Source: Burkholderiaceae bacterium (lineage in GTDB: Bacteria; Pseudomonadota; Gammaproteobacteria; Burkholderiales; Burkholderiaceae_C). From it: 64,000 bases of DNA. The translations under genes were made by a program, and so were the position numbers. Location of the stretch: assembly GCA_038125525.1 (NCBI GenBank), contig JAYPEA010000005.1, forward strand, positions 2,207-66,206. Direction: 5' to 3'. The notes below the pieces were generated by a model. It ran no database searches and was not told where the DNA came from. It was given only the letters and a program-made list of their open reading frames with translations. Position 1 is the first letter of the stretch, and the number at the start of each line of letters is the position of its first letter. Shown piece after piece: positions 2,691 to 54,826 of the stretch.

Positions 2691-3650
2691 ATGCAAGAGG
2701 CCGCTGCCCCGCCCCACTGGCGCACCGAGGGCCCCACCTGGCCACACCACGCGCGCAGCCGCTTTGTGGCTGCAGGCGGCATGGCTTGGCACGTGCAGCA
2801 CTGGCCCGAGCCCAATCGGCCCACGCCCAACCCACCCACACCAACGCGCGTGTTGCTGCTGCACGGCACCGGCGGCAGTACCCATTGCTGGCGTGGCGTG
2901 GCGCCGTGGTTGGCGCAACACGCCGAGGTGCTGGCGCTGGACTTACCCGGTCACGGCTTTAGCGCGGCACCGGCTAACCCACAAGGCATGAGCCTGCACG
3001 GCATGGCGCAGGGTGTGGCCGCGCTGCTGGCGGATTGGCCTTACACGCCCGACATGGTGGTGGGCCACTCGGCCGGCTGCGCCGTGGCGGTGCGCATGGC
3101 GCTAAACGGGCAACTGCCCAACACCCGGCTGCTGGTGGGCATTGGCGCGGCGCTGCTGCCCTGGCAAGGGTTGCCAGGCAAATGGTTTGGCCCATTGGCG
3201 CGCGGCCTGGCCAGCCTGGGGCCGGTGCCCAAATGGTTTGCGGGTTGGGCCAACAAGCCCGCCGTGCTGCAAAGCCTGGTGGACAGCACCGGCTCAACCT
3301 TGAGCGACGAATCGTTGGCCTTGTGGCAGCGGCTGGTGGCAAGGCCCGAGCACGCGCAAGCCACGCTGCGCATGATGGCCGAGTGGGACTTGCCCGCCCT
3401 GCAACACGACCTGCCCCACCTGGCCACGCCGCTGTGTTTGCTGCACGGCAGCCGCGACACCACCGTGCGCCCGAGTCAGTCGCACCGCGCCGCACAACAC
3501 GTAACACCCGCCGTGCGCGCGGGCGTACACGAGTGGCCCACGCTGGGGCACTTGGCACCCGAAGAGGCGCCCGAGCAAGTGGCGCAAAGCCTATGGGAGG
3601 TGTGGCAGGGGCGGCAGGGGTGGCAGCACGCCAACGCCCGCGGCGCTTAG
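2691..3650 (+). CDS. bchO: Alpha/beta hydrolase BchO (Mg-chelatase accessory)
   Basis: LLLHGTGGSTH, DLPGHGFS, GHSAG nucleophile elbow; bchI-D-O synteny. Confidence 0.88.
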   Translation: MQEAAAPPHWRTEGPTWPHHARSRFVAAGGMAWHVQHWPEPNRPTPNPPTPTRVLLLHGTGGSTHCWRGVAPWLAQHAEVLALDLPGHGFSAAPANPQGMSLHGMAQGVAALLADWPYTPDMVVGHSAGCAVAVRMALNGQLPNTRLLVGIGAALLPWQGLPGKWFGPLARGLASLGPVPKWFAGWANKPAVLQSLVDSTGSTLSDESLALWQRLVARPEHAQATLRMMAEWDLPALQHDLPHLATPLCLLHGSRDTTVRPSQSHRAAQHVTPAVRAGVHEWPTLGHLAPEEAPEQVAQSLWEVWQGRQGWQHANARGA

Positions 3651-4258
3651 CGCGGCAGCTGGGCCAGACGTTGCTGCACGGTTTGCGCCAGCGGCGCATC
3701 GGCCGGTAGCTGCTGCAGCGCGCGCTGCCAGTGGGCTCGGGCCTGCTGGGTTTGCTGCTGCTCAAGCGCGGCCATCCCCGCCAACACCAAAGCCTGCGCG
3801 TGATCGGGGCTGAGTTGCAGCGCGCGCTCAAGCCACCGCGCGGGTTCGCCCGCGAGCGAGCCGCCGCGCGCCATGGCGGTTACGTCGGCACGCATTACCC
3901 ACCAGTCGGCTTGGCTGGCATCGATGGCCACGGCCTTGGCCAAGGCTTCGGCGGCGTCGGCCCAGCGCTGCATGGCGGCGTACGATTTGGCCAGCATATG
4001 CCAGCCTTGGGCGTTGGTTTGACCGTCTGGGCCTTGCAGCTTGGCCTCTAGGCGTTGCACCATGGCTTGCACCAACGGGGTTTGGGTTACGTCGTTGGGT
4101 GGCGCAGCCTCGGCCGCTGCTGGCGCCGGTTGAGCGGGCGTGGCAACAGGCGGGCCGCCGGCCAGCAACCACGCCGGCTGCCCAAGCACGGCGTAAACGG
4201 CAACGGCCAGCGCGGCCACGCCCAGCCACACCGTCCAGCGTAAACCGCGCTCAGTCAT
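3647..4258 (-). CDS. ccmI: TPR-containing cytochrome c maturation chaperone, CcmI/CycH-like (short form)
   Basis: One N-terminal TM segment, then TPR-like repeats (GWHMLAKSY..., ERALQLSPDHAQALVLAG); ATGA-coupled to ccmH. Confidence 0.7.
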   Translation of the reverse strand: MTERGLRWTVWLGVAALAVAVYAVLGQPAWLLAGGPPVATPAQPAPAAAEAAPPNDVTQTPLVQAMVQRLEAKLQGPDGQTNAQGWHMLAKSYAAMQRWADAAEALAKAVAIDASQADWWVMRADVTAMARGGSLAGEPARWLERALQLSPDHAQALVLAGMAALEQQQTQQARAHWQRALQQLPADAPLAQTVQQRLAQLPR

Positions 4259-4662
4259 GACTTACCCGGCTGCGGCTTGGCCCGCGTGACGCGCCACCAG
4301 CCCAGCGCCGCGATCAGCAACAGCGCGGCTGGCAAAAACCACAGCGGCCACGTGCTGGGCTTGAGCGGCGGGCGGTAGCGCACGAAGTCGCCGTAGCGTT
4401 GCGTCATGTACTCAAGCACCTGCGCCTCGCTTTGGCCTTGGGCCAGCATGCGCCTAACCTGGTTGCGCAAGTCCACGGCCAACGGCGCTTGCGAGGCGGC
4501 AATGGTGTCGTTTTGGCACACCAGGCAACGCAGCTCGCTGGCCACGCGTTGCACCTGGTCCTCTAGCGTGGGGTTGGCACGCGCCAAATCGGCGTACCCC
4601 ATGGCCAAGCTCAACACCACGGCCCGTACGCCCAACCCGCGCATAAGACGCGGCCTAGCCAT
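4255..4662 (-). CDS. ccmH: Cytochrome c-type biogenesis protein CcmH
   Basis: LRCLVCQN motif, YGDFVRYRPP, C-terminal TM helix; start ATG 4662 overlaps the ccmG stop by 8 bp. Confidence 0.92.
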   Translation of the reverse strand: MARPRLMRGLGVRAVVLSLAMGYADLARANPTLEDQVQRVASELRCLVCQNDTIAASQAPLAVDLRNQVRRMLAQGQSEAQVLEYMTQRYGDFVRYRPPLKPSTWPLWFLPAALLLIAALGWWRVTRAKPQPGKS

Positions 4663-5197
4663 GGCGTTGCGCCAACAAGGGCAACAGCGTGGATTGCACC
4701 CATTGCGGCGTGACCACACCGGTGTGTTTGTGCCGCACGCGGCCTTGCGGGTCAATCACGTAGGTCTCGGGCACGCCGTACACGCCTAAGTCTATGCCCA
4801 CGCGGCCGTCCACGTCGTGCCATACGGTGTGGTACGGGTTGCCGCGCTGCGCCAGCCATTGTTGCGCGGCGGGGCTGGCGTCTTTGTAGTTCAGCCCCAC
4901 CAACGTAACGCGCTGGCTTTGCGCCAACTGCAGCAACACCGGATGCTCAACCGCGCACGGCGTGCACCACGAGGCCCACACGTTAAGCACCCACCACTGG
5001 CCGCGCCAGGCCTGTGAGCTAACCGCCGCGGCGGGCTTACCCAACGCAGGCAGCGCAAACGCCGGCAAGGGTTGGCCGATGAGTGGCGAGGGCACCTCGC
5101 GCGGGTTCAGCCTAAGCCCCACGCCCAAGGCCACGCACAGCAAGGCAAAGCCCGCCAGCGCCAGCCAAGGCCCCAGGCGGCGCGGTGCCCGTGTCAT
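4655..5197 (-). CDS. ccmG: Thiol:disulfide interchange protein CcmG/DsbE
   Basis: N-terminal TM anchor, LNVWASWCTPC thioredoxin motif, GVYGVPETY. Confidence 0.95.
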   Translation of the reverse strand: MTRAPRRLGPWLALAGFALLCVALGVGLRLNPREVPSPLIGQPLPAFALPALGKPAAAVSSQAWRGQWWVLNVWASWCTPCAVEHPVLLQLAQSQRVTLVGLNYKDASPAAQQWLAQRGNPYHTVWHDVDGRVGIDLGVYGVPETYVIDPQGRVRHKHTGVVTPQWVQSTLLPLLAQRHG

Positions 5198-7134
5198 GCG
5201 GCCTGCGCCGGCGGCAGCGCCGCGCGCCGGTCAAACGCCGCCATGAGGCCGCCCAAGGCCATCATCAAGCAGCCCAGCCATATCCAGTTCACCAGCGGCT
5301 TGTGGTGCACGCGAAAGGCAAAGGCGTCGTTGCCCAGCGATTCGCCCAGGGCCACGTAAACGTCGCGCCACAGGCTGCGGTCAATCGCCACCTCGGTCAT
5401 GGTTTGGCCGTTGGCCAGGTACAAGCGTCGCTCGGGCTCAAGCGTGGTGACCGTTTGGCCGTGTTGCTGCATGGGCAGACGGGCGCGTACCGCAAAGTAG
5501 TTGGGCCCGGGCGCCATGGTGACGCCGTCAAAGCGCAACTCAACGTTGCCCACGGCAATCGCCTGGCCCGGGCGCAGCCGCACGTCTTGCTCGTGCCCCC
5601 AGGTGGAGACCGCCGCCACGCCAAGGGCGAACACCGCAACACCCAAGTGCGCCAACCACATGCCGCCTTTGGCGCCGCGCAGCGCCCGCCAGCGCGCCGA
5701 GGCGGGCAAACGCTGGCGCCACCACTGCACCATGTGCTGCGCCACGCCAAACGTGAGCCACGCGGCCAAGGCCAACCCGCCCCACGTGGCCCACGACGCG
5801 CCCGGCACCCACCACACCACCGCCGTGGCCGCGCCCACGGCCAACCCGGCCACCAGCATCCACGCGCGCCAAGGCGCCCTGCCAGCGGCGCGGCGCCAAG
5901 CCAGCACCGGGCCGGGCACCATCAGCAACATCACCAGCAGCATCAAGGGCACAAACACGGCTTCAAAGTACGGCGGCCCCACCGACAACTTACCGAGCCC
6001 CATGGCATCAAGCAGCATGGGGTATAGCGTGCCCAGCAGCACACTGGCCGCGGCCACCATGAGCAGCAAGGTTTGGCCAAACAACAAACCCTCGCGCGAC
6101 CAGCCTTGAAAGCTTGCCCCCACGCCCACCGTGGGCGCACGCCAAGCGTAAAGCGCTAGCGCACCGCCCACCACCAGCGCCAAAAAAACCAAAATAAACA
6201 AACCGCGCCCGGGGTCTGAGGCGAACGCGTGCACCGAGCTGAGCACACCCGAGCGCACGATGAACGTGCCAAGCAACGCCAGCGCAAAGCCCAGCAGCGC
6301 CAGCAGCGCCGTCCATAGCCTGAAGCTGCCGCGCGCATCGGCCATGGCCGCGCTGTGCAACAACGCCGTGGCCACCAACCAGGGCATGAACGAGGCGTTT
6401 TCTACCGGGTCCCAAAACCACCAACCACCCCAGCCCAGTTCGTAGTACGCCCAAAAACTGCCCAAGGCAATGCCCACGGTTAAAAACGCCCAAGCCACCA
6501 GCGTCCACGGGCGTATGGCGCGCGCCCAGGCCGAGCCCAACTCGCCTTGCAGCAGCCCGGCCACGGTATAGGCAAAGGCCACCACCAAACCCACGTAACC
6601 CATGTACAGCAGCGGCGGATGCCACACCATGCCGGGGTCTTGCAGCAAGGGATTCATGCCTTGCCCGTCGGCCGGCACCGGCCAGGCGCGCAAAAACGGA
6701 TTGGACGTGAACAGCAAAAACGCCAAAAAGCCCACGCCAATAAGCCCCATTACGCCCAGCACGCGGGCGCGCTGCACGGCGCAAGCGCTGCGCGTGCGCC
6801 ATGCCACGGCCAACGTCCAACCAGCCAGCACCCACACCCACAGCAGCATGGAGCCCTCGTGGTTGCCCCACACCGCGGTGTAGCGGTACACCAGGGGCAG
6901 CGCCGAGTGGGCGTAACCGGCCACCAGCGCAACCGAGAAGTCGGTGTGCACAAACGCCCAGGTGAGCGCGCCAAACGCCAGCGTGACCGTGGCCGCTTGC
7001 ACTGCCACCAGACGCGGGGCAAAGCGCATCCACGCCGCATCGCCGCGCGCCGCACCACCCAAGCCAAGCACGGCCAGCGCCACGCTGGCAGCCAGTGCCA
7101 CGCTGAGGGCCAGATGGCCAAGCTCAACAATCAC
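5194..7134 (-). CDS. ccmF: Heme lyase CcmF
   Basis: MIVELGH start, [34 protein letters not shown] motifs; 646 aa polytopic membrane protein. Confidence 0.97.
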
Positions 7135-7592
7135 GGCTGCGACGCCACCTGCGTGCGCGTGGCTGCACCCGCGGCTTGCAGCGCCGCAGCGGCTTCGGGC
7201 GGCATGTAGTTTTCGTCGTGCTTGGCCAGCACTTGCTGCGCCACAAACCAGCCATCGGCAGCCAACGTGCCTTGCGCCACCACGCCTTTGCCCTCGCGAA
7301 ACAAGTCGGGCAACATACCGGCGTAACGCACCGGCACGTGGTGCGCGCCGTCGGTAACCACAAAACTCACCTGTAAGCCCGAGCCCGAGCCCGCACGCTG
7401 CACGCTGCCTTGCTGCACCAACCCGCCAACACGAAAGGCGCGTGTGGTGGGCGCTTGCTGCGCGGCCACTTGCGTGGGGCTATAAAAAAACACCAAGTTG
7501 CTCTCAAAGGCGCGCAACACCAAGGTGGCTGCCCCGCCCAGTGCCAACAACGCCGCGCCCAACCACAGCATGCGCCAACGCTTGGCCGTCAT
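7131..7592 (-). CDS. ccmE: Heme chaperone CcmE
   Basis: NLVFFYSP, Y[15 protein letters not shown], heme-binding LAKHDENY (HxxxY); ATG 7592 overlaps the ccmD stop. Confidence 0.96.
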
Positions 7593-7765
7593 GACGACTC
7601 CAGCCCGATGTCCCAGGCTTGGTCTTGCGCCGGGCGCTGCAGCGCGCGCCGCTGCCACGCCAGCACCATCCATTCGGCCAGCAGCACCAGCAGCGTCACG
7701 CCCACGGCGCCCCACACGTACCAACCCCGCCCGCCCATGCTGAACCACACTTCCAGCGTGCTCAT
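7589..7765 (-). CDS. ccmD: Heme exporter protein CcmD
   Basis: 58 aa, [13 protein letters not shown] plus TM helix plus basic tail; ATGA-coupled on both sides, between ccmC and ccmE. Confidence 0.85.
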
Positions 7766-8514
7766 GCTTGACTCTCCTGTTCGTTCAGCGCGCGCTGCGC
7801 CCATGTGGTGTGCCGCTCGCGGCGCAACAAAATCAATCGCAACCTCGCCAACACCGCCGCCAGCGTGTAACACCACGCCGCAGCCACCATGATGAGCATG
7901 GCGTGCAACATGGGCTCGGCCATGCGTGAACCGCTGGGCCCAATCGAGGCGCCCTGGTGCAAGGTGTTCCACCACACCACCGAAAAGTAAATCACCGGCA
8001 CATTGATGGCACCCACAATGGCCAACAAACTCGCCGCGCGGTCGGCGCGGTGCGCGTCTTCGATGCTGGCGTGCAGCGCCATGTAGCCCAGGTACAAAAA
8101 CAACAGCAACAACTCAGAGGTTAGGCGCGCGTCCCACACCCACCAGGTGCCCCAGGTGGGTTGGCCCCACAGCGCGCCGGTCCATAGCGCCACAAAGGTC
8201 ATGAGCGCGCCAGTGGGCGCCAAGGCCTGCGCCATCATGTGCGACAGGCGCGACTGCCAAATCAAACCCGCCGCTGCCCAGCCCGCCATGGCCAGGTAAA
8301 TCACCATGGACATCCACGCCGCGGGCACGTGCACAAACACAATGCGGTACACCTCGCCTTGTTGCGCGTCGGTTGGCGCTTGCCACAAGCCCAGGTAAAA
8401 GCCCCAGGCACCCAGCACCACGGCAGCGCCCAGCAACCACGGCTGCAAGGTTTGCGCCAAGCGGTAGCAGCGCGACGGCGCAGCAAAATAAAACCAGTTG
8501 ATACGGGTGCCCAT
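7762..8514 (-). CDS. ccmC: Heme ABC transporter permease CcmC
   Basis: HVPAAW, WWD domain [24 protein letters not shown]. Confidence 0.96.
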
Positions 8515-8516
8515 GC

Positions 8517-9233
8517 CTAGCCCTCCACCGCCATGCGTACCGCGCTGGCCACCGCCCACGGCAAGCCCACCACAGCCAACAACGCCATGGCCGCCAGCAG
8601 CGACAAGTGCGCCGCCACCACCTCGGGTGGCTGCCCCACGGCGCCCGCACCCAGCACCAACAAAGGCACCGTAAGCGGCAGCACCAACAAGGCCAACAAC
8701 ACCGCGCCACTGCGTACGCCCAGCACCAGCGCGGCGGCCACCGCGCCCAGCAAACACAACACCGGCAGCCCCAACAACAAGCCCGCCACCAACACCACCA
8801 GGGCCGAGGCCGAAAGCCCATACGGCACAGCCAACAACGGGCTGAGCGCCACCAGCGGCAGCAAAGCCAACGCGCCGTGCGTGGCCACCTTAACCAACAT
8901 CAACAACGCCAACGGGTGCGGCGACAACACCATTTGCTCCAAGGTGCCGTCTTGCCAATCGTCGTGAAACCAGCGCGGCAACGTGCCCAGCGTGGCCAAC
9001 ACGGCGGCCACCCAAATCACGCCCGGGCCCATGCGCTGCAGCAGCTGCGGCTCAGGCCCCACGGCCAGCGGAAACAACGCCGCCACCACCAAGAAAAAAC
9101 ACCACGCCGCGGCCAAATCGGCGCGTTGGCGCCACTGGCTGGCCACCGTGGCGCGCAACACCACGCCCAGGCTTACCCAGGCGCTGGCTAACTCGCGTGC
9201 GGGGGCCGCGCCCCAGGCCACCGACGCCGTCAT
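8517..9233 (-). CDS. ccmB: Heme exporter permease CcmB
   Basis: FPLAVGPEPQLL, DDWQDGTLEQ, LLVLPLTVPLLVLG; six-TM character; ATG overlaps the ccmA stop. Confidence 0.94.
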   Translation of the reverse strand: MTASVAWGAAPARELASAWVSLGVVLRATVASQWRQRADLAAAWCFFLVVAALFPLAVGPEPQLLQRMGPGVIWVAAVLATLGTLPRWFHDDWQDGTLEQMVLSPHPLALLMLVKVATHGALALLPLVALSPLLAVPYGLSASALVVLVAGLLLGLPVLCLLGAVAAALVLGVRSGAVLLALLVLPLTVPLLVLGAGAVGQPPEVVAAHLSLLAAMALLAVVGLPWAVASAVRMAVEG

Positions 9234-9847
9234 AGTGCCAACCGCCTCAGCCCGGCGTAGGCGTGGCCGGTTTGCCCATGCGCAGTAAACACCACGGCCC
9301 CACCACCGTGCACGTGGCGCTGCATGAGTTGTTGCAACCAACCGGTGGCGCGCTCGTCCAGCGCGACAAAGGGCTCGTCCAGCAGCCACAGCGCTGGCGC
9401 CCCGGGTAAGCCCAACCGGGCCAGCGCCGCCAAGCGGCGTTGCCCCTGCGACAAGCGTCCTACCGGCCGGCCGGCCACGGCGCTCAGGCCGCAGGCGTCC
9501 AAGGTGGCGTCCATGGCCTGCCGGTTAACCGCTTGCCCAGCCAGCGCGCAACCCAGGGTCAAATTGGCACGCGCATCAAGATTAGCTTTTTGTGCCGGCA
9601 CCGGCCCAATCCACGCCATGTGCTCGCGCATGGCGCGCCAGTTGTCACCCAACAACGGCTGGCCATGCCACAGCATGTGCCCCTGACCCAGCGGAAACAA
9701 ACCCGCCAAGGAGCGCAGCAACGTGGTTTTGCCCGCGCCGTTGGCCCCTTCAATCTGCCAGGTTTGCCCGCCCAGCACCTGCAAGCCCAGGCCACGCACC
9801 AACCAGCGGTGGCCGCGTTGCAGACCCACATCAATTAAAGCGAGCAT
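9230..9847 (-). CDS. ccmA: Heme ABC exporter ATP-binding protein CcmA
   Basis: Walker A GANGAGKTT, signature LSQGQRR, Walker B LWLLDEP; heads the ccm operon. Confidence 0.93.
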   Translation of the reverse strand: MLALIDVGLQRGHRWLVRGLGLQVLGGQTWQIEGANGAGKTTLLRSLAGLFPLGQGHMLWHGQPLLGDNWRAMREHMAWIGPVPAQKANLDARANLTLGCALAGQAVNRQAMDATLDACGLSAVAGRPVGRLSQGQRRLAALARLGLPGAPALWLLDEPFVALDERATGWLQQLMQRHVHGGGAVVFTAHGQTGHAYAGLRRLAL

Positions 9848-9862
9848 GGAATCACCGGTCAG

Positions 9863-9880
9863 TGTCAACTAATAGTGACA
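9863..9880. promoter_or_regulatory. PpsR/CrtJ box, 15 bp upstream of the ccmA start
   Basis: TGTCAACTAATAGTGACA, an exact TGT-N12-ACA palindrome. Confidence 0.8.
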
Positions 9881-9918
9881 CTTGTAGCACATTCATATAA
9901 ATGACACAAGCGAACGAC

Positions 9919-9951
9919 TTGACATTCTAAGGTGTCGTGTTAAATTGACAC
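9919..9951. promoter_or_regulatory. Putative overlapping divergent sigma70 promoters (crtE rightward, ccmA leftward)
   Basis: Plus strand: TTGACA(9919-24)-N16-TAAATT(9941-46). Minus strand: GTGTCA(9951-46)-N16-TAGAAT(9929-24). Motif match only. Confidence 0.45.
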
Positions 9952-9976
9952 TACGTGATGTCACACTCTTTTTACA
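9933..9976. promoter_or_regulatory. Tandem PpsR/CrtJ boxes 8 bp apart, upstream of crtE
   Basis: TGTCGTGTTAAATTGACA (9933-9950) and TGTCACACTCTTTTTACA (9959-9976), both exact TGT-N12-ACA with the classic 8-bp spacing. Confidence 0.88.
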
Positions 9977-9997
9977 ACTGTACCGATCGGGGGCCCC

Positions 9998-10888
9998 ATG
10001 GACATGCGCAAACGGATTGAGCAGGCGCTGGCGCGCCAGCTGGCCCCAGCACCCCACCACGGGGCGCCACCCAAGTTGCTGCAGGCCATGCGGCATGCGG
10101 TGTTTCCCGGCGGGGCGCGCATACGGCCCCAGCTTTGCTTGGCGGTGGCGCAGGCCTGCGCCTGCGATGCCCCGGGCTTGGCCTTGGGCGGCGCGGTGGG
10201 GGTCGAGCTGTTGCACTGCGCCTCGTTGGTGCACGACGACATGCCCTGCTTTGATGACGCCGACACCCGACGCGGCCGCCCCAGCGTGCAGCGCCAATAC
10301 GGTGAGCCGCTGGCCCTGCTCACAGGGGATGCCTTGATTGTGCTGGCTTTTGAGGTGCTTACTGACCCCGATGTTGGCCATGCCGAGCGCGCCTTGGCCA
10401 TGCAACGCACGCTGGCGCAAGCGGCCGGCTCGCCCGCGGGTGTGGTGGCTGGTCAGGCCTGGGAGTGCGAAACGGAAGTGGATTTGTCTCAGTACCAGCG
10501 CGCCAAAACCGGGGCGCTATTTGTGGCCGCCACCACGTTGGGCGCGCAAGCCGCCGGCGCCCCGCCCGAGCCCTGGCAAGCGCTGGGTGAGCAGCTGGGC
10601 GAGGCGTATCAGGTGGCCGACGACATTCGCGACGTGGTGGGCGACGCGGCCGAGTTGGGCAAACCGGTGGGCCAAGACCAAGCCCACGACCGGCCCAACG
10701 CGATGCAAACGCTGGGCTTGTCGGGGGCGCTTAAGCGCTTTGAATCGCTCATGCAAGACGCCGTGGCCGCCGTGCCCGCCTGCCCGCAGCAAAGCGCCAT
10801 GCGCGAGCTGGTGCGGCACGAGGCATTGCGCTTGGTGCCACAGCTGTCGATTGCCTGGCGCCACCCCAACCCTCGCGCCACCGCGTAG
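9998..10888 (+). CDS. crtE: Geranylgeranyl diphosphate synthase
   Basis: FPGGARIRPQL, ASLVHDDMPCFDDADTRRG (FARM), QVADDIRD (SARM). Confidence 0.96.
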   Translation: MDMRKRIEQALARQLAPAPHHGAPPKLLQAMRHAVFPGGARIRPQLCLAVAQACACDAPGLALGGAVGVELLHCASLVHDDMPCFDDADTRRGRPSVQRQYGEPLALLTGDALIVLAFEVLTDPDVGHAERALAMQRTLAQAAGSPAGVVAGQAWECETEVDLSQYQRAKTGALFVAATTLGAQAAGAPPEPWQALGEQLGEAYQVADDIRDVVGDAAELGKPVGQDQAHDRPNAMQTLGLSGALKRFESLMQDAVAAVPACPQQSAMRELVRHEALRLVPQLSIAWRHPNPRATA

Positions 10889-10892
10889 GCCG

Positions 10893-12092
10893 ATGCAACA
10901 AGTTCATGCCTCTGCCGGCGGCGCGGCGTTGAGCTGGTGGCAACGGCTGCAGCAAGCGCGGGGCGACTGGCTGGTCAACCCGCGGCTGCACCAATGGGCC
11001 AGCCGTAGCGTGCTGACGCGCTGGCTGGTACGGCGCCGGGCGCATCAACTGTTTGACGTGATGGCGGGCTTTGTGCACACGCAGGTGCTGCTGGCGTGCC
11101 TGGAGCTTGACCTGCTGGTGCGCCTGCAACGCAGCGGTGCGCAGGGTGCCGAAGCGCTAGCCAAAACGCACGACATACCGCTCGAGGCCATGACTGCCCT
11201 GCTCGACAGCGCGGTGCAGCTGGGCTTGCTACGCCGCCGTGGCCAGCGCTACACCCTTGGCCCCTTGGCCACGCCGCTGCTAACCCACGCCGGCATACGC
11301 GACATGGTGCAGCACAACGCGTTGCTGTACGCGGACATGCAACACCCCGTGGCGCTGATGCGCCAACCCCATACCAGCGCCATGCATCGGTTTTGGCTTT
11401 ATACCGATGGCAGCGACGGCCAGGACGCGCCATCGGCCGCGCCAAACCAGTGGTCAGCCCAAGGCGTGGCCGCTTACTCGGGGCTAATGGCCAGTTCGCA
11501 AAGCTTTTTGCGAGAGCAACTGCTGCAGGTGTACCCGTTTGCTCAGCACCAACACGTGATGGACGTGGGCGGTGGACAAGGCGCTTGGGTGGCCACCTTA
11601 GCCCAACGCGTGCCGAGTTTGCAGCTGACGCTGGTGGACTTGCCACCGGTGGCGGAGTTGGCCGAACAACGCCTAAATAGCGTGGGTTTGAAGGGCCGCG
11701 TGCAATGCCACGGCCTGCACTTTGCCCACGACAACCTGCCCGTAGGGGCCGACCTGATTACGCTGCTGCGCGTGGCACACGACCACCCCGACGAGGTGGT
11801 GCGCCAACTGATGCAAGCCTGCTGGCGCGCCCTGCCCGCCGGCGGCACGCTGCTGCTGGCCGAACCCATGGCCGAGCAGCCCGGCGGCGCCGCGCGCGTT
11901 GACCCCTACTACCACTTTTACCTGTTGGCCATGGGGCAAGGGCGCCTGCGCACGGCCAATCGCATTGCGCTGCTGATGTCTGAAGCAGGTTTTGTTCACA
12001 TTGAAAGCCTCCCTACGCCACTTCCGATGCACGGAGGCGTGGTGATTGGCCGAAAGCCCCTAGACAAAATCCAAACAAAACGGCCGAAATAA
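10893..12092 (+). CDS. crtF: Hydroxyneurosporene/demethylspheroidene O-methyltransferase
   Basis: LFDVMAGFVHTQVL, SAM motif MDVGGGQG, LLLAEPM; crtE-crtF-bchC synteny; ATG 5 nt after the crtE stop. Confidence 0.92.
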   Translation: MQQVHASAGGAALSWWQRLQQARGDWLVNPRLHQWASRSVLTRWLVRRRAHQLFDVMAGFVHTQVLLACLELDLLVRLQRSGAQGAEALAKTHDIPLEAMTALLDSAVQLGLLRRRGQRYTLGPLATPLLTHAGIRDMVQHNALLYADMQHPVALMRQPHTSAMHRFWLYTDGSDGQDAPSAAPNQWSAQGVAAYSGLMASSQSFLREQLLQVYPFAQHQHVMDVGGGQGAWVATLAQRVPSLQLTLVDLPPVAELAEQRLNSVGLKGRVQCHGLHFAHDNLPVGADLITLLRVAHDHPDEVVRQLMQACWRALPAGGTLLLAEPMAEQPGGAARVDPYYHFYLLAMGQGRLRTANRIALLMSEAGFVHIESLPTPLPMHGGVVIGRKPLDKIQTKRPK

Positions 12093-12105: not shown

Positions 12106-12149
12106 GGTAAATTTTAATTGACACTTCATAATGTCAACAAATAAATACA
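12106..12149. promoter_or_regulatory. bchC promoter with tandem PpsR boxes 8 bp apart
   Basis: GGTAAATTTTAATTGACA (12106-23, one mismatch) and TGTCAACAAATAAATACA (12132-49, exact); TTGACA at 12118-23. Confidence 0.88.
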
Positions 12150-19790: not shown

Positions 19791-20816
19791 ATGTTGCAAT
19801 CATCCACACATTGGTTGGCGCGTGGTGCCAAGCTCGCGGCGTTGGCCTCACTGGTCACACTTGCCGCCTGCGAGCGCCCCCCCATGCAAAGCGAACAAAA
19901 CGGCTTTCGTGGCACGGGCATGGTGCAAGTGGTCAACCCACGCGCGCTGGAGGACAAGGTTGCCTTAAACGCTGTGCCCATGGCCACGCCGCAGGCTCCG
20001 GCTGAGGGGCCCAAGGCCTCGCAGATTTACCAAAACGTGCAAGTGCTGGGCGACTTGAGCGTGGGCCAGTTCACCCGCTTAATGGTGGCCATTACCAGCT
20101 GGATTGCACCACAAGAGGGCTGTAACTACTGCCACAACCCGGCCAATTTGGCCGAGGACAGCAAGTACACCAAGGTGGTGTCGCGGCGCATGATTGAGAT
20201 GACGCAAAACATCAACGCCAACTGGAAGACCCACGTGGCCGACACCGGGGTGACGTGCTACACCTGTCACCGGGGCCAGGCGGTGCCGTCTCAGGTTTGG
20301 TTTAAAGCCGACCAAGAGCCCAAAGGCGCAAACTTTATTGGCGACAAAGCTGGGCAAAACAGTCCGGCAGCCAGCGTCAAGTTGGCCTCGTTGCCCAACG
20401 ACCCGTTTACGCCGTTTTTGCTGGGCGATCATGCCATTCGCGTGAATGGCACCACCGCCTTGCCCACGGGCAACCGCAGCTCAATTAAGCAAACCGAGTG
20501 GACGTATGGGTTGATGGTGCACATGTCGGCCTCGCTGGGGGTGAACTGCACGTACTGCCACAACACGCGAGCGTTTTCGAGCTGGGAGGACGCCGCGCCA
20601 CAACGCGTGAAGGCTTGGCACGGCATTCGCATGGCGCGCGACGTGAACAATCAATACATCGCGCCGCTCACCGAGGTGTTTCCGGCCAACCGCAAGGGCG
20701 TGTTGGGCGACTTGGCCAAGGTCAATTGCGCCACCTGCCATCAGGGCGTGAACAAGCCGTTGTTGGGCGCCTCTATGCTTAAAGACTACCCCTCGCTGGC
20801 CAGCGGGGCCAAGTAA
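19791..20816 (+). CDS. pufC: RC-bound tetraheme cytochrome c subunit
   Basis: Lipobox-like LAAC/ERPP; four CxxCH motifs (CNYCH, CYTCH, CTYCH, CATCH). Confidence 0.98.
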   Translation: MLQSSTHWLARGAKLAALASLVTLAACERPPMQSEQNGFRGTGMVQVVNPRALEDKVALNAVPMATPQAPAEGPKASQIYQNVQVLGDLSVGQFTRLMVAITSWIAPQEGCNYCHNPANLAEDSKYTKVVSRRMIEMTQNINANWKTHVADTGVTCYTCHRGQAVPSQVWFKADQEPKGANFIGDKAGQNSPAASVKLASLPNDPFTPFLLGDHAIRVNGTTALPTGNRSSIKQTEWTYGLMVHMSASLGVNCTYCHNTRAFSSWEDAAPQRVKAWHGIRMARDVNNQYIAPLTEVFPANRKGVLGDLAKVNCATCHQGVNKPLLGASMLKDYPSLASGAK

Positions 20817-40385: not shown

Positions 40386-40419
40386 TGTCAACTTTTTATG
40401 ACGTCAATTATTATTTACA
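40386..40419. promoter_or_regulatory. Two degenerate PpsR boxes in the bchF/aerR divergent region
   Basis: TGTCAACTTTTTATGACG (40386-403) and CGTCAATTATTATTTACA (40402-419), one mismatch each, overlapping by 2 bp; minus-strand TTGACA-N17-TAAATT points at bchF. Confidence 0.7.
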
Positions 40420-40562: not shown

Positions 40563-41366
40563 ATGCCCACCTCACGACCATCGCACGATGCGGGCAGCGG
40601 GCAATCCCACGTCCCTAGGGAGTTACTGCGTCAAGCCATCACGCACCGCGTGGTGCCGGCGTTGCTGGGGCGGGCGGCCAATGGTGACAAGGCCCGCGTC
40701 CTACCCAGCGAGTCCTCGGTGTTGGCTCTGGCCCAGCACATCTTGGGTGAATCCATCGAGCCCGCCCGCCAACTGATGCGCGGGCAGCTAAGCGCGGGCG
40801 TCAGCACAGAAGACCTCTACCTGCACCTGTTGGCGCCAGCTGCTCGCGTACTGGGGCGACACTGGGAGAGTGACGCCTGCGACTTTGTTGAGGTGACGTG
40901 GGGCATGGGCCAACTGCACCAGCTGCTGCGCGAGCACCCGCTAAGCCGCCCCGCTGCTGGCACCGCCGCTGTGGGTCAGGTGCTGCTGTGTCCCTTACCG
41001 GGCGAGCAACACACCTTTGGCTTGGCCATGGTGGCCGAGTTTTTGCTGCAAGCCGGCTGGCTGGTGCAACGCCAGCAGTTTGCCAGTCAGGCCGAGGCTG
41101 TGGTGTGGATCAAACAACACCACGTGCACGTGGCGGCCTTGAGCGTGGGCCACACCGGCAGCGCCGCCGCTTTGGCCGAACTCACCCGTGCCCTGCGCCG
41201 GGCCAGTGCCAACCCCAGCGTGGCCCTGCTCGCCGGCGGCGCCGGCCTAAACGCCAGCCAAACACCCGCAACCACTCTGGGGCTGGACGCCGTAGTCGAA
41301 GCCGCACCCGACGTCCCGCGTTTGGCGGCACAATACCTCCCACCTAACCGAATTGTCAAAAGTTAA
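40563..41366 (+). CDS. aerR: Cobalamin-binding antirepressor AerR/PpaA
   Basis: RHWESDACDF, B12-binding EQHTFG (ExHxxG); directly upstream of ppsR. Confidence 0.88.
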   Translation: MPTSRPSHDAGSGQSHVPRELLRQAITHRVVPALLGRAANGDKARVLPSESSVLALAQHILGESIEPARQLMRGQLSAGVSTEDLYLHLLAPAARVLGRHWESDACDFVEVTWGMGQLHQLLREHPLSRPAAGTAAVGQVLLCPLPGEQHTFGLAMVAEFLLQAGWLVQRQQFASQAEAVVWIKQHHVHVAALSVGHTGSAAALAELTRALRRASANPSVALLAGGAGLNASQTPATTLGLDAVVEAAPDVPRLAAQYLPPNRIVKS

Positions 41367-41380
41367 TTGTTTTGCCAGAC

Positions 41381-42823
41381 ATGACCGCGCGACAACCCCA
41401 ACCCAGTTTGAACTTCAGTCTGGCTGAACGCCACTTGGGCGGCTTGCACGCGTCCTCGGCGGCTTCGTTGCTTGCCGCCAGCGGCGACTTGGTGCTGCTG
41501 CTCGCCGCCAACGGTGACATTCTCGACCTCGCCTGCAGCCGTGAAGACCTGGCCAGTTGGAACTTAAGCGACTGGATAGGCCAGCCCTGGGAGCGCACCG
41601 TCACCGGTGAGAGCGTGCCCAAAATTCAAGCCATGCTGCAAGACGCCCAACGCGGCCAACCCGCGCAGTCGCGGCAAGTCAACCACCCCAGTCCCATGGG
41701 CAGCGACCTGCCAGTTGCCTACCGCGTGGTGCCGTTAGGCGATCGCGAGCACGCCGCGCAGTTTGCCGCCATTGGGCGAGACCTGCGCGACACCACACGC
41801 ATGCAGCAACGGCTGGTGGCCGCGCAAACCCAAATGGAGCGCGACCACTGGCAGGCGCAAGCCATTCAAACCCGCGCCCAAGCCATGATTGAGCTCAGCG
41901 GCGAGGCGCTGCTGGTGCTCGAGGCCGACCAATGGAGCCTGGTGCAAGCCAACACCGCAGCGCACCAGCTGCTGGGCCCCACCCTTGAGCAATCGGGCTG
42001 GACGCTGCTGGGGCAGCTGGGCCCAGCGGCCCGGCAAACCCTTATGCAACACGCCGCGCAGTTGCAATCAGGCGCCGGCCCACGCGTGGCGCACTTTAAT
42101 CTCGATCACCACGGCAACGTGTGGCAAGCCGCCTTGCAGCGCGCTGACGTGGGCGCCAGCAGCCAATGGCTGCTGCGCTTATCTGGCCACCCCACCGCCA
42201 CCGGCGAAACCGACCAAACCTGGGCGCCCATGGCCACCAGCGCGCCCGATGCGCTGCTGATCACCAACCCGTTGGGCATCATCGAGCACGCCAACCCCAG
42301 TTTTTTACGCGCCGTGCAGTGCACCAGCCCCGAGCAGGTGCTGGGTACCTCGCTTGAGACCTGGCTGGGGCGGCAAGAAGTCGATCAAAGCGTGCTGCTG
42401 TCCAACCTCAAACAACACGGCAGCGTGCGCTTGTTTGCCACCGAACTGCATGGCGCCCTGGGCACCAGCACAGAGGTAGAAATCTCCGCAGCCGCCATTG
42501 GCGAGAACCGCCCGGCTCGCTATGGCTTTGTGCTGCGCGACGTCAGCCGCCGCCTGGACGAAACCCCGAAAGAATTGCCGCGCACCGCCAGCGAAATGAC
42601 CGAACTCGTGGGGCGCCTGCCGCTCAAAGACATCGTGCGTGAAACCACCGACCTCATCGAGCAGTTGTGCATTCAGGCCGCGCTCGAGCTCACCGGCGAC
42701 AACCGCGCCTCAGCGGCCGAAATGCTCGGCCTGTCCCGACAAAGCCTCTACATCAAGCTGCGCCGCTTTCAACTGGGCGACGGCGTGGACGACACCACCG
42801 TGAAGACTGAAAGTCAAACCTAG
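41381..42823 (+). CDS. ppsR: Photosynthesis gene repressor PpsR/CrtJ
   Basis: PAS-type repeats, LVGRLPLKDIVRETTD.IE..CI..AL, Fis-type HTH NRASAAEMLGLSRQSLYIKLRR. Confidence 0.95.
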   Translation: MTARQPQPSLNFSLAERHLGGLHASSAASLLAASGDLVLLLAANGDILDLACSREDLASWNLSDWIGQPWERTVTGESVPKIQAMLQDAQRGQPAQSRQVNHPSPMGSDLPVAYRVVPLGDREHAAQFAAIGRDLRDTTRMQQRLVAAQTQMERDHWQAQAIQTRAQAMIELSGEALLVLEADQWSLVQANTAAHQLLGPTLEQSGWTLLGQLGPAARQTLMQHAAQLQSGAGPRVAHFNLDHHGNVWQAALQRADVGASSQWLLRLSGHPTATGETDQTWAPMATSAPDALLITNPLGIIEHANPSFLRAVQCTSPEQVLGTSLETWLGRQEVDQSVLLSNLKQHGSVRLFATELHGALGTSTEVEISAAAIGENRPARYGFVLRDVSRRLDETPKELPRTASEMTELVGRLPLKDIVRETTDLIEQLCIQAALELTGDNRASAAEMLGLSRQSLYIKLRRFQLGDGVDDTTVKTESQT

Positions 42824-42836: not shown

Positions 42837-42877
42837 TGTAAATATAAATTGACACACCCTGGCCCGCGCCACACAAT
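42837..42877 (+). promoter_or_regulatory. bchG promoter with PpsR box
   Basis: TGTAAATATAAATTGACA (42837-54, exact TGT-N12-ACA); TTGACA-N17-CACAAT ends 6 nt before the ATG. Confidence 0.82.
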
Positions 42878-47212: not shown

Positions 47213-48490
47213 ATGACCCCCCACGTTTCCCAAACATCGGCAACGCCCCCTCCTGCGGTTGCCTCCGATTCGTATCGCATGACGGCAGCCGAGCGGCGTG
47301 CGAGCTTCTCACTCAGCGGGCTTTATGCGTTACGCATGCTTGGCCTATTTATTGTGCTGCCCGTGTTTGCGCTGCAAGCCGCAAACTACCCCGGTGGCAA
47401 CGACCCGGCCATGGTGGGCCTGGCCATGGGAGCCTATGGGCTTACCCAGGCATGCCTGCACTTGGTCTTTGGTGCGGCGTCTGACCGCTGGGGCCGAAAG
47501 CGGGTGATTGTGGGCGGCTTATTGATTTTTATTGCGGGCAGTTTGGTCGCGGCCATGGCACAAAGCGTCACTGGTCTCATCGTGGGTCGCATGCTGCAGG
47601 GCGCGGGCGCGGTCTCGGCCGTTATCAGCGCGCTGCTGGCCGACCAAACCCGCCCCGAGGTACGCACCAAAGCGTTGGCCATGGTGGGCGCCAGCATTGG
47701 GCTGATGTTTGCTTTGTCCTTGGTGCTGGCGCCACCGCTGGCCGCGGTTGCCGGTTTGCCTGGCTTGTTCGTGCTCACCGCCGCGCTCGCCGTGGTGGGT
47801 ATTTGGTTGCTTCTCAAACGCGTCCCGCCCGAGCCGTCGCGCCAAGCCTCCCACGCAAGCGCCGGTATGCGCGCCTTGCTTACGCACGGGCCCACGCTTC
47901 GCCTTAACGCCGGGGTGTTCATCATGCACGCCATGTTGCTGGCGCTATGGGTGGCCGTGCCCGGCATGCTGGTTCAAGCCGGGGTCGCACCGGCGGCACA
48001 TTGGCAGGTGTATCTGCCAGCCATGGCGGCATCGTTTGGCGTCATGGCGGTCACGCTGTTTCCCTTAGAGCGGCGCGGCTACACCCGAGCGGTATTTTTG
48101 TGCGCTATTGGCGTGGTGGCGCTGGTCTTGCTTGGCTTGGCCTGGGCCGCTTCGGCGGGGGTGGGCGCCGTCACGCTTGGCATGTTGTTGTTTGCCTTTT
48201 TTTGTTGCTCCAACATTCTCGAGGCCTGCCAGCCCAGCATTGCCTCGCGCGCCGCACCGCCCCATGCCCGTGGCGCCGCCATGGGTTTTTACAACACCTT
48301 GCAGTCGTTGGGGTTCTTTGCCGGGGGCGCCGTGGGCGGTTTGCTGATGCGGCAGTTGGGCGCGGTGGGGCTGTTTGTTACGTTAGCCGGCTTTACCCTG
48401 CTGTGGCTGCTGTTGGCGTGGCCCATGGCACCCCTGGGGGCCCGGGGCGAGGTGCAAGACGCAGCCACCGCACCAGCAACCGGCGCCTAG
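47213..48490 (+). CDS. MFS transporter (YajR-like)
   Basis: YALRMLGLFIVLPV, ASDRWGRKRV, GRMLQGAGA; ~12 TM segments. Confidence 0.88.
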   Translation: MTPHVSQTSATPPPAVASDSYRMTAAERRASFSLSGLYALRMLGLFIVLPVFALQAANYPGGNDPAMVGLAMGAYGLTQACLHLVFGAASDRWGRKRVIVGGLLIFIAGSLVAAMAQSVTGLIVGRMLQGAGAVSAVISALLADQTRPEVRTKALAMVGASIGLMFALSLVLAPPLAAVAGLPGLFVLTAALAVVGIWLLLKRVPPEPSRQASHASAGMRALLTHGPTLRLNAGVFIMHAMLLALWVAVPGMLVQAGVAPAAHWQVYLPAMAASFGVMAVTLFPLERRGYTRAVFLCAIGVVALVLLGLAWAASAGVGAVTLGMLLFAFFCCSNILEACQPSIASRAAPPHARGAAMGFYNTLQSLGFFAGGAVGGLLMRQLGAVGLFVTLAGFTLLWLLLAWPMAPLGARGEVQDAATAPATGA

Positions 48491-49200
48491 GCCAGTTGCG
48501 CCAATTCCTCATCGCTCAGCCAGCGCCAGGCCGACGGCGCCAACCCCTCAAGCGTTAGCCCACCCACTTGCGAACGGTGCAAGGCCACCACGCGGTTGCC
48601 CAGGGCAGCCACCATGCGCTTGACTTGGTGGTACCTGCCTTGAGTTAGCGTCAGGGCTAACTCATGTTCCCCCGTCCTCTGCGCGGCCTCGGCATGCAGC
48701 GCGCGTGGCTCGCCGCGTAGCACCACCCCAGCGCACAACGCGCGGCACAGCGCTTCGGTCACAGGGTCGCGGGTACACACCTGGTATACCTTGGGCACGC
48801 GATGCTTGGGCGAGGCCAAGCGGTGCAGCAGCGCGCCGTCGTCGGTGAGCAGCAGCAGCCCGGTGGTGTCGGCGTCGAGTCGCCCCACGCTTTGCACCCC
48901 AAGCTGCCCACCGGTAGGCCGCTGCCGCAGCGGTACTGGCAGCAACGCGTACACGCTGGGGTAGGCCGTTGGCCGTTGCGAACATTCGTAGCCTGCGGGT
49001 TTGTGCAGCATCACGGTGGCGTGGCGGCACACCGGCCAGCGCTGGCCGTTTACCTCCAAAACCAAACCAGCCAAGGGCAACGTAACAAACGGGTCGTGCT
49101 GCACCTGTGCGGCCACCCGCACGGCCCCGCTGCTGGCTAAGGCATGGCACGCGCGTCGCGAGCCAAAGCCCTGCCGGTAAAGCACCTCGTGCAGCGCCAT
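48487..49200 (-). CDS. rsuA: RsuA-family 16S rRNA pseudouridine synthase
   Basis: QGFGSRR S4-like start, LHKPAGY, GRLDADTTGLLLLTDDG, GRYHQVKRM. Confidence 0.85.
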   Translation of the reverse strand: MALHEVLYRQGFGSRRACHALASSGAVRVAAQVQHDPFVTLPLAGLVLEVNGQRWPVCRHATVMLHKPAGYECSQRPTAYPSVYALLPVPLRQRPTGGQLGVQSVGRLDADTTGLLLLTDDGALLHRLASPKHRVPKVYQVCTRDPVTEALCRALCAGVVLRGEPRALHAEAAQRTGEHELALTLTQGRYHQVKRMVAALGNRVVALHRSQVGGLTLEGLAPSAWRWLSDEELAQLA

Positions 49201-49234
49201 CTCGGTGGCCTGCGGCGCGTGGCGCACGAGCGCG

Positions 49235-49873
49235 CTACCTCAGCGTCACGCCGGTTTTGCTTTGTATGAATTCGCGCGTCACACCTGGCGCGGTTTCAAT
49301 CAGTTTTAAGCCCTCCGGCGTCACGTCCATCACCCCCAAATCGGTGATGATTTGATCCACCACGCCCACGCCCGTGAGCGGCAGCGTGCACTGGGGCAAG
49401 ATTTTGAGGTCTTCGGTCCCGTCCTTTTTACGCGCCACGTGCTCCATCAAAATCACCACGCGCCCCACCCCAGCCACCAAGTCCATGGCGCCGCCCATGC
49501 CCTTAATCATCTTGCCTGGAATCATCCAGTTGGCCAAATCGCCGTGCTCGCTGACTTGCATGGCGCCCAAAAACGACAAATTAATTTTGCCGCCGCGAAT
49601 CATGGCAAAACTGTCGTGGCTGCCAAAAATGGACGTGCCGGCAATGGTGGTCACGGTTTGTTTGCCGGCATTAATCAAATCTGCGTCCACCTCGTCTTCG
49701 GTCGGAAACGGCCCAATGCCGAGCATACCGTTCTCAGACTGCAGCCACACCTCCATGTGATCAGGCACGTGATTGGCCACCAACGTGGGCAGGCCAATAC
49801 CCAGGTTCACGTAAAAACCATCTTGCAACTCTTGCGCCGCGCGTGCGGCCATCTCGTCGTGACTCCAGCTCAT
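49235..49873 (-). CDS. scoB: 3-oxoacid CoA-transferase subunit B
   Basis: [18 protein letters not shown] (catalytic Glu), GMGGAMDLV. Confidence 0.9.
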
Positions 49874-50580: not shown

Positions 50581-50651
50581 TTTCTCCCGTTAACAACGTA
50601 AAGTCGTAGTTTCGCACACCTTGTTGCACTCTGCGGCCCAGGAGCCTCACC

Positions 50652-51664: not shown

Positions 51665-51721
51665 CGCGACATCCTAAAATGAAACGCGGTATTTCCCAAG
51701 CCAGCCCCCTCCAAGTTCACC

Positions 51722-53401: not shown

Positions 53402-53439
53402 CGGCGGCTTGGGCTGACCCCCGATTGCTGCTACACTGC

Positions 53440-53615: not shown

Positions 53616-53659
53616 TACCCAGCAGGCACGGGCCTGTTGTGGTTAACGCCGAGCCCTGC

Positions 53660-54802: not shown

Positions 54803-54826
54803 GCCGCCTAGCCCAGGAGACCACAC

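Follow-up and report, generated by a model that had tools for sequence, protein, structure and literature searches.

We analyzed the control region between the cytochrome c maturation gene ccmA and the divergently transcribed gene crtE inside the photosynthesis gene cluster (PGC) of a Burkholderiaceae bacterium. The stretch of DNA analyzed, hereafter the window, is 64,000 nt long (assembly GCA_038125525.1, contig JAYPEA010000005.1, positions 2,207-66,206) and comes from a small freshwater betaproteobacterium with a genome of 1.87 Mb that is 95.7% complete. It contains a complete PGC, which also encodes the regulators PpsR and AerR, and within the cluster, between bchIDO and crtEF, an operon for System I cytochrome c maturation (Ccm). 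The gap between ccmA and crtE holds three PpsR-type palindromes. We conclude that the palindrome nearest ccmA (box 1), together with a -10 element that directly abuts it, is the predicted promoter-operator of the PGC-embedded ccm operon. Taken as a whole, the observations make it probable that the gap is a two-way control region run by PpsR, and that the PGC-borne Ccm system is an accessory one, co-regulated with the photosystem, with a second maturation system (System II) for respiration. The analysis drew on sequence features, conservation, gene content and co-occurrence.

Three PpsR-type boxes in the ccmA-crtE gap

The gap spans 150 bp (9848-9997), from the ATG of ccmA (9847-9845, minus strand) to that of crtE (9998, plus strand). 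An earlier reading of this DNA (the original prediction) had placed three exact TGT-N12-ACA palindromes here, at 9863-9880, 9933-9950 and 9959-9976, with 8 bp (9951-9958) between the second and third and 15 nt between the first and the ccmA ATG. All of these positions and distances were verified. Judged by their sequence, the boxes are ordinary members of the PpsR/CrtJ operator family. The features of the gap are as follows.

9863-9880, no strand: box 1, a perfect PpsR-type palindrome, TGTCAAC-N4-GTGACA (exact match); proposed operator of the ccm promoter
9881-9889, minus strand: candidate extended -10 of ccm, TGCTACAAG, directly abutting box 1; the predicted start, at about 9874, is inside the box
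9904-9909, minus strand: candidate -35 of ccm, TTGTGT, 17 nt upstream of the -10; a weak match to the consensus
9919-9924, plus strand: -35 of crtE, TTGACA, from a consensus scan; remnant of the right half of an "upper" PpsR box that is intact in relatives
9924-9929, minus strand: TAGAAT, present, a poorly supported alternative -10 of ccm
9933-9950, no strand: box 2, a PpsR palindrome; its center, TAAATT (9941-9946), preceded by TG, would be the crtE -10
9941-9946, plus strand: predicted -10 of crtE, TAAATT, inside box 2
9959-9976, no strand: box 3, the third PpsR palindrome, downstream of box 2 with 8 bp between them, at about +6 to +23 of the predicted crtE transcript

Box 1 and its abutting -10 element are conserved at ccmA

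ccmA is the first gene of its operon and has a divergent neighbor, and therefore the ccm promoter must lie in the gap. We compared the gap with related loci. By CrtE, the nearest records were metagenome-assembled genomes (MAGs) of Comamonadaceae/Burkholderiaceae, one 99% and one 91% identical, and the next nearest, at 66% identity or less, were from Hydrogenophaga, Polaromonas, Limnohabitans and Ramlibacter. Among 80 crtE loci fetched, ccmA was divergent from crtE in 12 (the 99%- and 91%-identical relatives and ten others), and in 10 more only a plus-strand gene of the FrhB family (bciB-like) separated the two. Box 1 adjoined ccmA in 22 of 22 loci of the crtE or bciB type. The original prediction had assigned this box to ccm and had asked whether it is conserved or serves only in looping repression of crtE. 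The box was kept beside ccmA across several genera of Comamonadaceae, whether the divergent neighbor was crtE, the bciB-like gene or crtI, and even in the 10 loci in which the bciB-like gene intervenes and crtE is 1.5-2.1 kb away.

The conservation extends to a promoter element oriented toward ccmA. When 19 loci from several genera were compared with MAFFT, the flanks proved unalignable, and the only blocks shared by all loci were the box and the adjoining CTTATA(G/T)CA (plus strand). On the ccmA strand this block reads TG(C/A)TATAAG, an extended -10 with the box immediately after it. The same module, TGATATAAG followed by the box and then ccmA, was present where crtI is the divergent gene (G204, G292 and G384) and in G157. 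The -35 block AATGACACAAG was kept in the 91%-identical relative and in Hydrogenophaga-type loci. A comparable box before ccmA was absent from 20 genomes lacking a PGC (PGC-minus), from 9 PGC-plus genomes in which ccm is unlinked, and from another 5 PGC-minus genomes (0 of 29 and 0 of 5 ccm operons outside a PGC). Because the box and the abutting -10 are conserved whatever the neighbor, box 1 is predicted to be a ccm promoter-operator and not merely a looping site for crtE, and its assignment to the ccm side is upheld. Looping of box 1 to boxes 2 and 3 may occur as well; one role does not preclude the other.

An alternative is that box 1 does not control ccm. It would instead be a distant auxiliary operator for looping at crtE, or a leftover of a former bciB promoter, and ccm would be expressed constitutively. 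We consider this unlikely. In Rhodobacter capsulatus, CrtJ/PpsR is known to bind cooperatively at palindromes with 76-240 bp between them (as summarized in PMC4452267), box 1 is solitary, and in relatives with bciB it overlaps a good plus-strand promoter, TTGTCA-N17-TATCAT. However, the loci without bciB have lost that promoter (it has decayed to TAGCAC) and have retained the box and the TGnTATAAG of the minus strand, ccmA has this module ahead of it also when crtI is the neighbor, and the box stays at ccmA when crtE is far away. No conserved or phased spacing separates box 1 from the crtE pair. In addition, any ccm promoter in a 150-bp gap with three operators would be within about 70 bp of a box.

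Several other candidates were rejected. The original prediction had described a minus-strand TAGAAT (9929-9924) overlapping the plus-strand TTGACA (9919-9924) as interlocked promoters. Both elements exist and both are called by a consensus scan, TAGAAT being paired with GTGTCA (9951-9946) as a ccm promoter. The interlocked ccm promoter is not conserved: the -10 reads GAGAAT in the 91%-identical relative (L010) and is unalignable in other genera. TGCTACAAG at 9889-9881, next to box 1, is the better-supported candidate for the ccm promoter. Fixed helical phasing of box 1 to the crtE pair was dropped as evidence of looping (the distance is 70-188 bp among relatives and unphased), and no constant interval was seen between box 1 and the ccmA start codon (15-158 nt); the constant feature is the abutting -10.

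In relatives from Hydrogenophaga and Polaromonas (L015, L016, L020, L029, L033, L034, L040, L041, L052 and L055), the gene separating ccmA from crtE codes for a bciB-like 8-vinyl reductase of the FrhB/FdhB family (424-455 amino acids) and is located about 1.3 kb upstream of crtE. It is not at the corresponding position of the window; the 8-vinyl reductase of the source genome was not looked for.

The crtE side of the gap

The crtE side is predicted to have a classical layout of the bchC type, with box 2 over the -10 and box 3 just past the start. The footprinted palindromes of R. capsulatus bchC are at -47 to -30 and -21 to -4 (PMC5362033). In the source genome, the bchC promoter is an internal reference for the layout of PpsR operators. 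The corresponding features are:

9998-12092, plus strand: crtE (9998-10888) and crtF, first genes of the crtEF-bchCXYZ-puf transcription block
12106-12149, no strand: bchC promoter pair, a one-mismatch box (12106-12123), an 8-bp gap and an exact box (12132-12149)

TTGACA stands 16 nt before the hexamer TA(A/G)ATT of box 2 in 26 related loci, and in other loci a full further box ends in TTGACA, 8 bp before box 2. Of the 80 crtE loci, 61 had tandem boxes spaced 8 bp apart. The sequence TGTCATGTTA(A/G)ATTGACA is kept at about -68 of crtE across genera, and in the bciB-type relatives crtE has its own box pair at about -68/-42. A layout with TTGACA at 9945-9950 as the -35 and the -10 in box 3 was dropped, TTGACA-16-TA(A/G)ATT being the conserved form. 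The crtE product is a polyprenyl synthase that scores below the NCBIfam cut-off for CrtE, and the gene was named from its context.

System I accompanies the PGC and System II is general in the genus

The ccm operon is, from its gene content and motifs, a full-set System I, with a predicted function in heme attachment. The tetraheme cytochrome gene pufC is the obvious PGC-encoded client.

3647-9847, minus strand: ccmABCDEFGHI, complete System I operon; Pfam and NCBIfam matches for A, B, C, E, F, G, H and I
Individual genes, all minus strand: ccmA 9230-9847; ccmB 8517-9233; ccmC 7762-8520; ccmD 7589-7765; ccmE 7131-7592; ccmF 5194-7134; ccmG 4655-5197; ccmH 4255-4755; ccmI 3647-4258
19791-20816, plus strand: pufC, tetraheme reaction-center cytochrome, Pfam CytoC_RC, four standard CXXCH motifs

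CcmA matches Pfam ABC_tran and TIGR01189 (148 bits, cut-off 131.6), and ccmD is an open reading frame (ORF) of 58 amino acids. The catalytic motifs are all intact: WWD in CcmC and CcmF, HDENY in CcmE, CxxC in CcmG and CcmH, and Walker A in CcmA. CcmF and CcmE are each present in a single copy in the genome, both in the PGC operon. We rejected the possibility that ccm is a dedicated lyase of the NrfEFG type: the PufC motifs are standard, and CcmF passes the general CcmF/NrfE model and scores 673 with the NrfE-specific model, under its cut-off of 927.3.

The genome also has an intact System II, ResB (a 722-amino-acid open frame) and CcsA, on contig C33. We searched 61 relatives for reaction-center genes, CcmF and ResB. 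For the genus (the source genome and 16 relatives), the results were:

PGC present: 7 genomes, CcmF in 7
Neither reaction-center genes nor CcmF found: 9 genomes (five at least 97% complete), CcmF in 0
Reaction-center genes not found, 75% complete (G006): 1 genome, CcmF in 1

ResB was present in every member of the genus that was at least 91% complete, with or without a PGC, and in all five of the congeners without CcmF that were at least 97% complete. From these distributions, System II is the system that the genus uses generally, and the presence of Ccm follows that of the PGC. The original prediction had taken ccm to be a housekeeping system, a premise that is wrong given the intact ResB and CcsA elsewhere in the genome. 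With System II as the general system, the puzzle of why a housekeeping system would be repressed is removed. The dedicated role that had also been suggested gains support from the intact System II and from the co-occurrence of Ccm and PGC in the genus.

In G006 (L097), CcmF was found without reaction-center genes, and ccmA is not preceded by hemA. Either the bin is missing part of the genome or the co-occurrence has a true exception here.

The box at ccmA is found in genomes that also have System II

The PGC-embedded ccm operons fall into two groups by the presence of a box at ccmA.

Box at ccmA: ResB in 17 of 17 genomes tested (G000, G111, G157, G180, G204, G292 and G384; by locus, L012, L013, L016, L022, L029, L031, L033, L035, L040 and L068)
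No box at ccmA, ccm not preceded by PGC genes other than a pucC-like gene: ResB found in 0 of 5
G024 and G319 (no box): pucC-ccm arrangement
G166, G287 and G380 (no box): only the crtE pair of boxes; ccmA has its own TTGACC-N18-GATAAT about 200 bp away

The grouping was made after the data had been seen, and its counts (17 of 17 versus 0 of 5) overstate independence, since the genomes compared are related and the set lacking both box and ResB comes from two genera only. With these limits, Ccm appears to be repressed with the photosystem only where another pathway can serve respiration.

These data also bear on a second alternative, in which Ccm is the main maturation pathway and System II is redundant or specialized; the location in the PGC would be an accident of insertion, and the box would only trim expression. 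Ccm can be indispensable in a related phototroph (a ccmF mutant of Rubrivivax gelatinosus is without any c-type cytochromes; PMC4600104), the relatives in which ResB was not found (G024, G319, G166, G287 and G380) must use the PGC-embedded ccm as their general system, and the Ccm motifs of the window are intact. Nevertheless, we regard this explanation as quite improbable for the source genome. It has intact ResB and CcsA of its own, nine congeners live without CcmF, it is exactly the Ccm-only relatives that are without a box at ccmA, and the CcmC of the window is on a long branch.

ccm operons in PGCs across the family

The family set comprised 401 genomes that were at least 90% complete, 67 of them with reaction-center genes. 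At least 15 genomes, which represent at least 9 genera, had ccmF no more than 45 kb from pufM. Besides the loci with ccmA beside crtE or the bciB-like gene, there were genomes with ccmA divergent from crtI, or located after a pucC-like gene or after bchP-tspO. The presence of ccm within the PGC is common in the family and no peculiarity of the source genome. The original prediction had stated that ccm took the divergent slot at crtE; as a description this is right, and alphaproteobacterial loci in the same search have crtD opposite crtE.

CcmF was present in 45 of 67 (67%) PGC-plus genomes versus 124 of 334 (37%) PGC-minus genomes. Exclusive co-occurrence of PGC and Ccm in the family was rejected on the latter figure. 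We also rejected a strict need of PufC for System I; G034 has a PGC with pufC and has ResB, without CcmF.

A CcmC tree (63 rows) placed all 29 PGC-embedded operons and one unlinked operon in a single clade without any PGC-minus genome. The clade had moderate support, with a Shimodaira-Hasegawa-like approximate likelihood ratio (SH-aLRT) value of 88, and monophyly of the 29 was not rejected by the approximately unbiased test (p-AU 0.415). Most ccm operons unlinked to a PGC clustered with those of non-phototrophic kin. A tree that forced the window CcmC to group with that of G003-type congeners was rejected (p-AU 0.022), for a grouping picked after the tree had been viewed and with a long window branch. 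A single ccm lineage throughout the genus was likewise rejected: in the G003-type congeners, ccm is of another lineage and is part of a dxs-hemA-ccm operon. Because this lineage is also attached to the PGC, two independent ccm lineages joined the PGC within one genus.

In the G003-type congeners (L099, G003:C7 10988-17001; L094-L096, L098 and L100), the dxs-hemA-ccmABC... operon has 4 nt between the hemA stop and the ccmA ATG. It is divergent from hemE-bchIDO at the PGC border, and the gap between hemE and dxs contains near-consensus PpsR boxes and TGTCAA half-sites. The source genome has single copies of hemA, dxs and hemE, outside the PGC.

The window CcmC has a long terminal branch (0.85 changes per site) and at most 72% identity to any relative, and the window CcmA is only about 45% identical to the Hydrogenophaga-type CcmA. 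The evolution of the accessory ccm operon in this streamlined 1.9-Mb genome may be accelerated or relaxed; its motifs are nevertheless intact. In the 91%-identical relative, the ccmC match (L101, G007:C2 8302-9028, on the same contig as L010) is split over two frames. This may be a frameshift or an assembly error, so that the operon there would be decaying or mis-assembled. Several public genome records (L010, L030, L041, L051, L054, L062 and L069-L073) contain Comamonadaceae-type PGCs under titles such as "Candidatus Fonsibacter lacus", "Bordetella parapertussis", "Synechococcus sp.", "Rhizobium sp." or "Labrys sp." These records are probably mislabelled or mis-binned.

A model for joint control of ccm and the photosystem

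The proposed regulators are encoded together in the right part of the cluster.

40563-42823, plus strand: aerR/ppaA (40563-41366) and ppsR (41372-42823), proposed regulator pair

PpsR matches the PpsR-CrtJ equivalog TIGR02040 (397.7 bits, cut-off 275.4) and is full length, including the helix-turn-helix. AerR has a Pfam B12-binding domain, and its gene is directly upstream of ppsR.

From the observations above we infer PpsR binding, the transcription starts, the direction of regulation and a physiological reason for it, as follows. The 150-bp gap would be a compact bidirectional control region under PpsR. In oxic or bright conditions, PpsR would occupy all three boxes and both divergent promoters would be off. 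AerR and redox signals would release PpsR, and crtEF-bch-puf and the accessory Ccm would then be made together. In this way the nine-gene ccmABCDEFGHI operon would be repressed and released with the pigment and reaction-center genes in response to oxygen and light, via PpsR and AerR. With the ccm start inside the operator, bound PpsR would block RNA polymerase, and PpsR at box 1 could contact PpsR at boxes 2 and 3 by looping.

System II (ResB/CcsA) would cover respiration, and Ccm would be an accessory module that belongs to, and is inherited with, the PGC. Co-repression of ccm would be affordable because System II serves basic respiration. Ccm would presumably give PufC and other c-type cytochromes of photosynthesis additional heme attachment, or attachment of higher affinity, when tetrapyrrole flux goes to bacteriochlorophyll. 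System I is reported to work at lower heme levels and to hold a heme reservoir (cited in PMC8805035), and operation at low heme would suit a cell that diverts protoporphyrin to bacteriochlorophyll. More tentatively, we propose that Comamonadaceae PGCs carry their own PpsR-gated, co-transferred System I, which would let hosts with System II load PufC and its electron donors during the drain on protoporphyrin, and that the box evolves or persists only where System II covers respiration. Such a PpsR-gated second line would be a natural division of labor between the two bacterial systems of cytochrome c maturation.

Several points, besides the relatedness of the genomes compared, weigh against this model. 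The regulatory claim is sequence-based and the transcription starts are predictions. The -10 of the window itself is weakened (TACAAG, not TATAAG) and its -35 is a poor one. PpsR/CrtJ usually binds two sites cooperatively, whereas box 1 stands by itself, with 52 bp between it and box 2, and could pair cooperatively only via a possible loop. Its distances to the crtE pair and to the ccmA start vary and are not helically phased, and its overlap with a plus-strand promoter in the bciB relatives means that it may have originated as a bciB operator. In Rubrivivax gelatinosus, PpsR binding at 8-bp spacing is not redox-dependent (PMC4452267). The association of PGC and Ccm over the family is only moderate, the G034 genome combines pufC with System II and no CcmF, and the main CcmC clade is not strongly supported, with the window on a long branch.

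In a third alternative, PpsR and AerR would activate rather than repress at box 1, giving the same co-expression with the photosystem by another mechanism. In Rubrivivax gelatinosus, PpsR is considered to act as a repressor and also as an activator, and AerR-CrtJ complexes activate bchC in photosynthetic conditions (PMC5362033). We think activation very unlikely here: the box comes immediately downstream of the conserved -10 and covers the start that is predicted, which is the position of a repressor, and activator sites are normally upstream of the -35.

Other PpsR-type boxes in the window and genome

TGT-N12-ACA is not enriched over the window (10 sites, compared to 12.7 ± 3.8 expected), and there are 292 sites in the 1.87-Mb genome. 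The five A+T-rich sites of the window are all in PGC gaps, before crtE/ccmA, bchC and bchG. The five G+C-rich sites are scattered elsewhere in the window and look like chance matches. Three or more sites occurred in 124 of 200,000 dinucleotide-preserving shuffles of the gap itself. The strict form, TGTCA-N8-TGACA, has 2 copies in the genome, box 1 and a site upstream of bchI. That the three palindromes are themselves chance matches in an A+T-rich gap, as the lack of a window-wide excess might allow, has a negligible probability: the shuffles rarely give three sites, the strict form is found just twice in the genome, and all three boxes are kept in relatives despite diverged flanks, a conservation that already refutes chance.

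The remaining A+T-rich site is:

42837-42854, no strand: box upstream of bchG, exact, A+T-rich

The strict site upstream of bchI (contig C5:2099-2116) falls just outside the window, 107 nt to the left of its first position, and shares the TGTCAAC-N4-GTGACA subtype of box 1. The upstream ORF stops 5 nt ahead of this site, and the bchI ATG follows it at a distance of 10-18 nt. Like ccmA, bchIDO seems to have a single tight operator. In the gap between bchF and aerR (40386-40419), two one-mismatch boxes, TGTCAACTTTTTATGACG and CGTCAATTATTATTTACA, overlap by 2 nt and are not 8 bp apart, an unusual operator layout before aerR-ppsR and bchF.

Comparison with known systems

The gap resembles the CrtJ/PpsR operators of R. 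capsulatus bchC and crtD/crtE (PMC5362033) in its TGT-N12-ACA boxes, in the 8-bp tandem over promoter elements and in the divergent crtE promoter, and the regulator is encoded in the same cluster beside a B12-binding AerR. The arrangements differ in the partner of crtE, which is crtD in R. capsulatus and ccmA here, with crtD after pufC. Here the -10 is in the center of the middle box, the third box is past the start, and a single ccm operator covers the predicted start; our evidence comes from DNA sequence. In Rubrivivax gelatinosus, a betaproteobacterial PpsR binds TGT-N12-ACA pairs in vitro at crtI and pucB, with 8-bp spacing at the carotenoid promoter (PMC4452267). Unlike here, Ccm is the sole maturation pathway in that organism (PMC4600104) and is not reported as a PpsR target, and redox dependence needed 9-bp spacing (PMC4452267).

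The closest precedent is the ccmA-I passenger operons of mtrCAB islands in Betaproteobacteria (PMC8805035). In these, too, a complete System I lies beside a multiheme cytochrome cluster, in Comamonadaceae such as Ramlibacter and Polaromonas; ccm is absent from relatives without the island, and several genomes have System II elsewhere. In our case, the island is a PGC, the ccm promoter bears the island's own repressor box, and the box tracks the presence of System II. NrfEFG and NrfI/CcsA1 (PMC3601427) are similar in that components of heme attachment are encoded beside, and presumably expressed with, a particular cytochrome client. They differ in being partial sets for non-standard motifs (CXXCK and CX15CH), whereas here there is a full nine-gene system and PufC has ordinary CXXCH motifs.

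The part that is apparently undescribed is an accessory System I embedded in a PGC and, as predicted, wired to the cluster's own repressor, an arrangement general across the family. In Rhodobacter, CrtJ/PpsR reportedly controls heme synthesis and respiratory cytochrome genes (Smart and Bauer, 2006; Swem and Bauer, 2002), and that regulon likewise reaches past the pigment genes to the heme branch and cytochromes. We know of no report of cytochrome c maturation genes among CrtJ/PpsR targets. Chromatin immunoprecipitation sequencing of R. sphaeroides PpsR gave 15 operons, 13 of them photosynthetic (PMC4263372). A full-text literature search, which had incomplete coverage and is no proof of novelty, turned up no publication that connects ccm with a PGC or with PpsR. 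If ccm is a target, the PpsR regulon would include heme attachment in addition to the synthesis of pigments and heme.

The reasons for which some bacteria retain two maturation systems, and the benefit of System I over the simpler System II, have so far mostly been studied in recombinant E. coli. The genomes compared here form a matched natural set: congeners with System II only and no PGC, genomes with System II and a PGC-borne System I, and relatives with a PGC-borne System I alone. The box at ccmA is found only in the group with both systems, so a division of labor is testable in culturable isolates of Hydrogenophaga and Polaromonas. The results suggest that Ccm should be counted among the accessory genes that travel with PGCs, which bears on the annotation of metagenome-assembled freshwater aerobic phototrophs and, with Ccm as a passenger, on what a recipient needs after horizontal transfer of a PGC.

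Gene order of the cluster and flanking genes

The left part of the PGC has the order bchI-bchD-bchO (plus strand), ccmIHGFEDCBA (minus strand, 3647-9847) and crtE-crtF-bchCXYZ-pufBALMC-crtD-crtC. The right part consists of crtB-crtI-puhE-acsF-puhCBA-lhaA-bchMLHBNF (minus strand) and aerR-ppsR-bchG-pucC-like-bchP-tspO. bchO (plus strand, ending at 3650) and ccmI (minus strand, ending at 3647) are convergent, and their ends overlap by 4 nt. As this leaves no room for a terminator, convergent transcription of bchIDO and ccm could collide.

The cluster ends to the right of tspO, and the remainder of the window (47213-64000) contains ordinary metabolism genes. These include a major facilitator superfamily transporter, electron transfer flavoprotein-ubiquinone oxidoreductase (51722-53401) and the T and P proteins of the glycine cleavage system (53456-58125).

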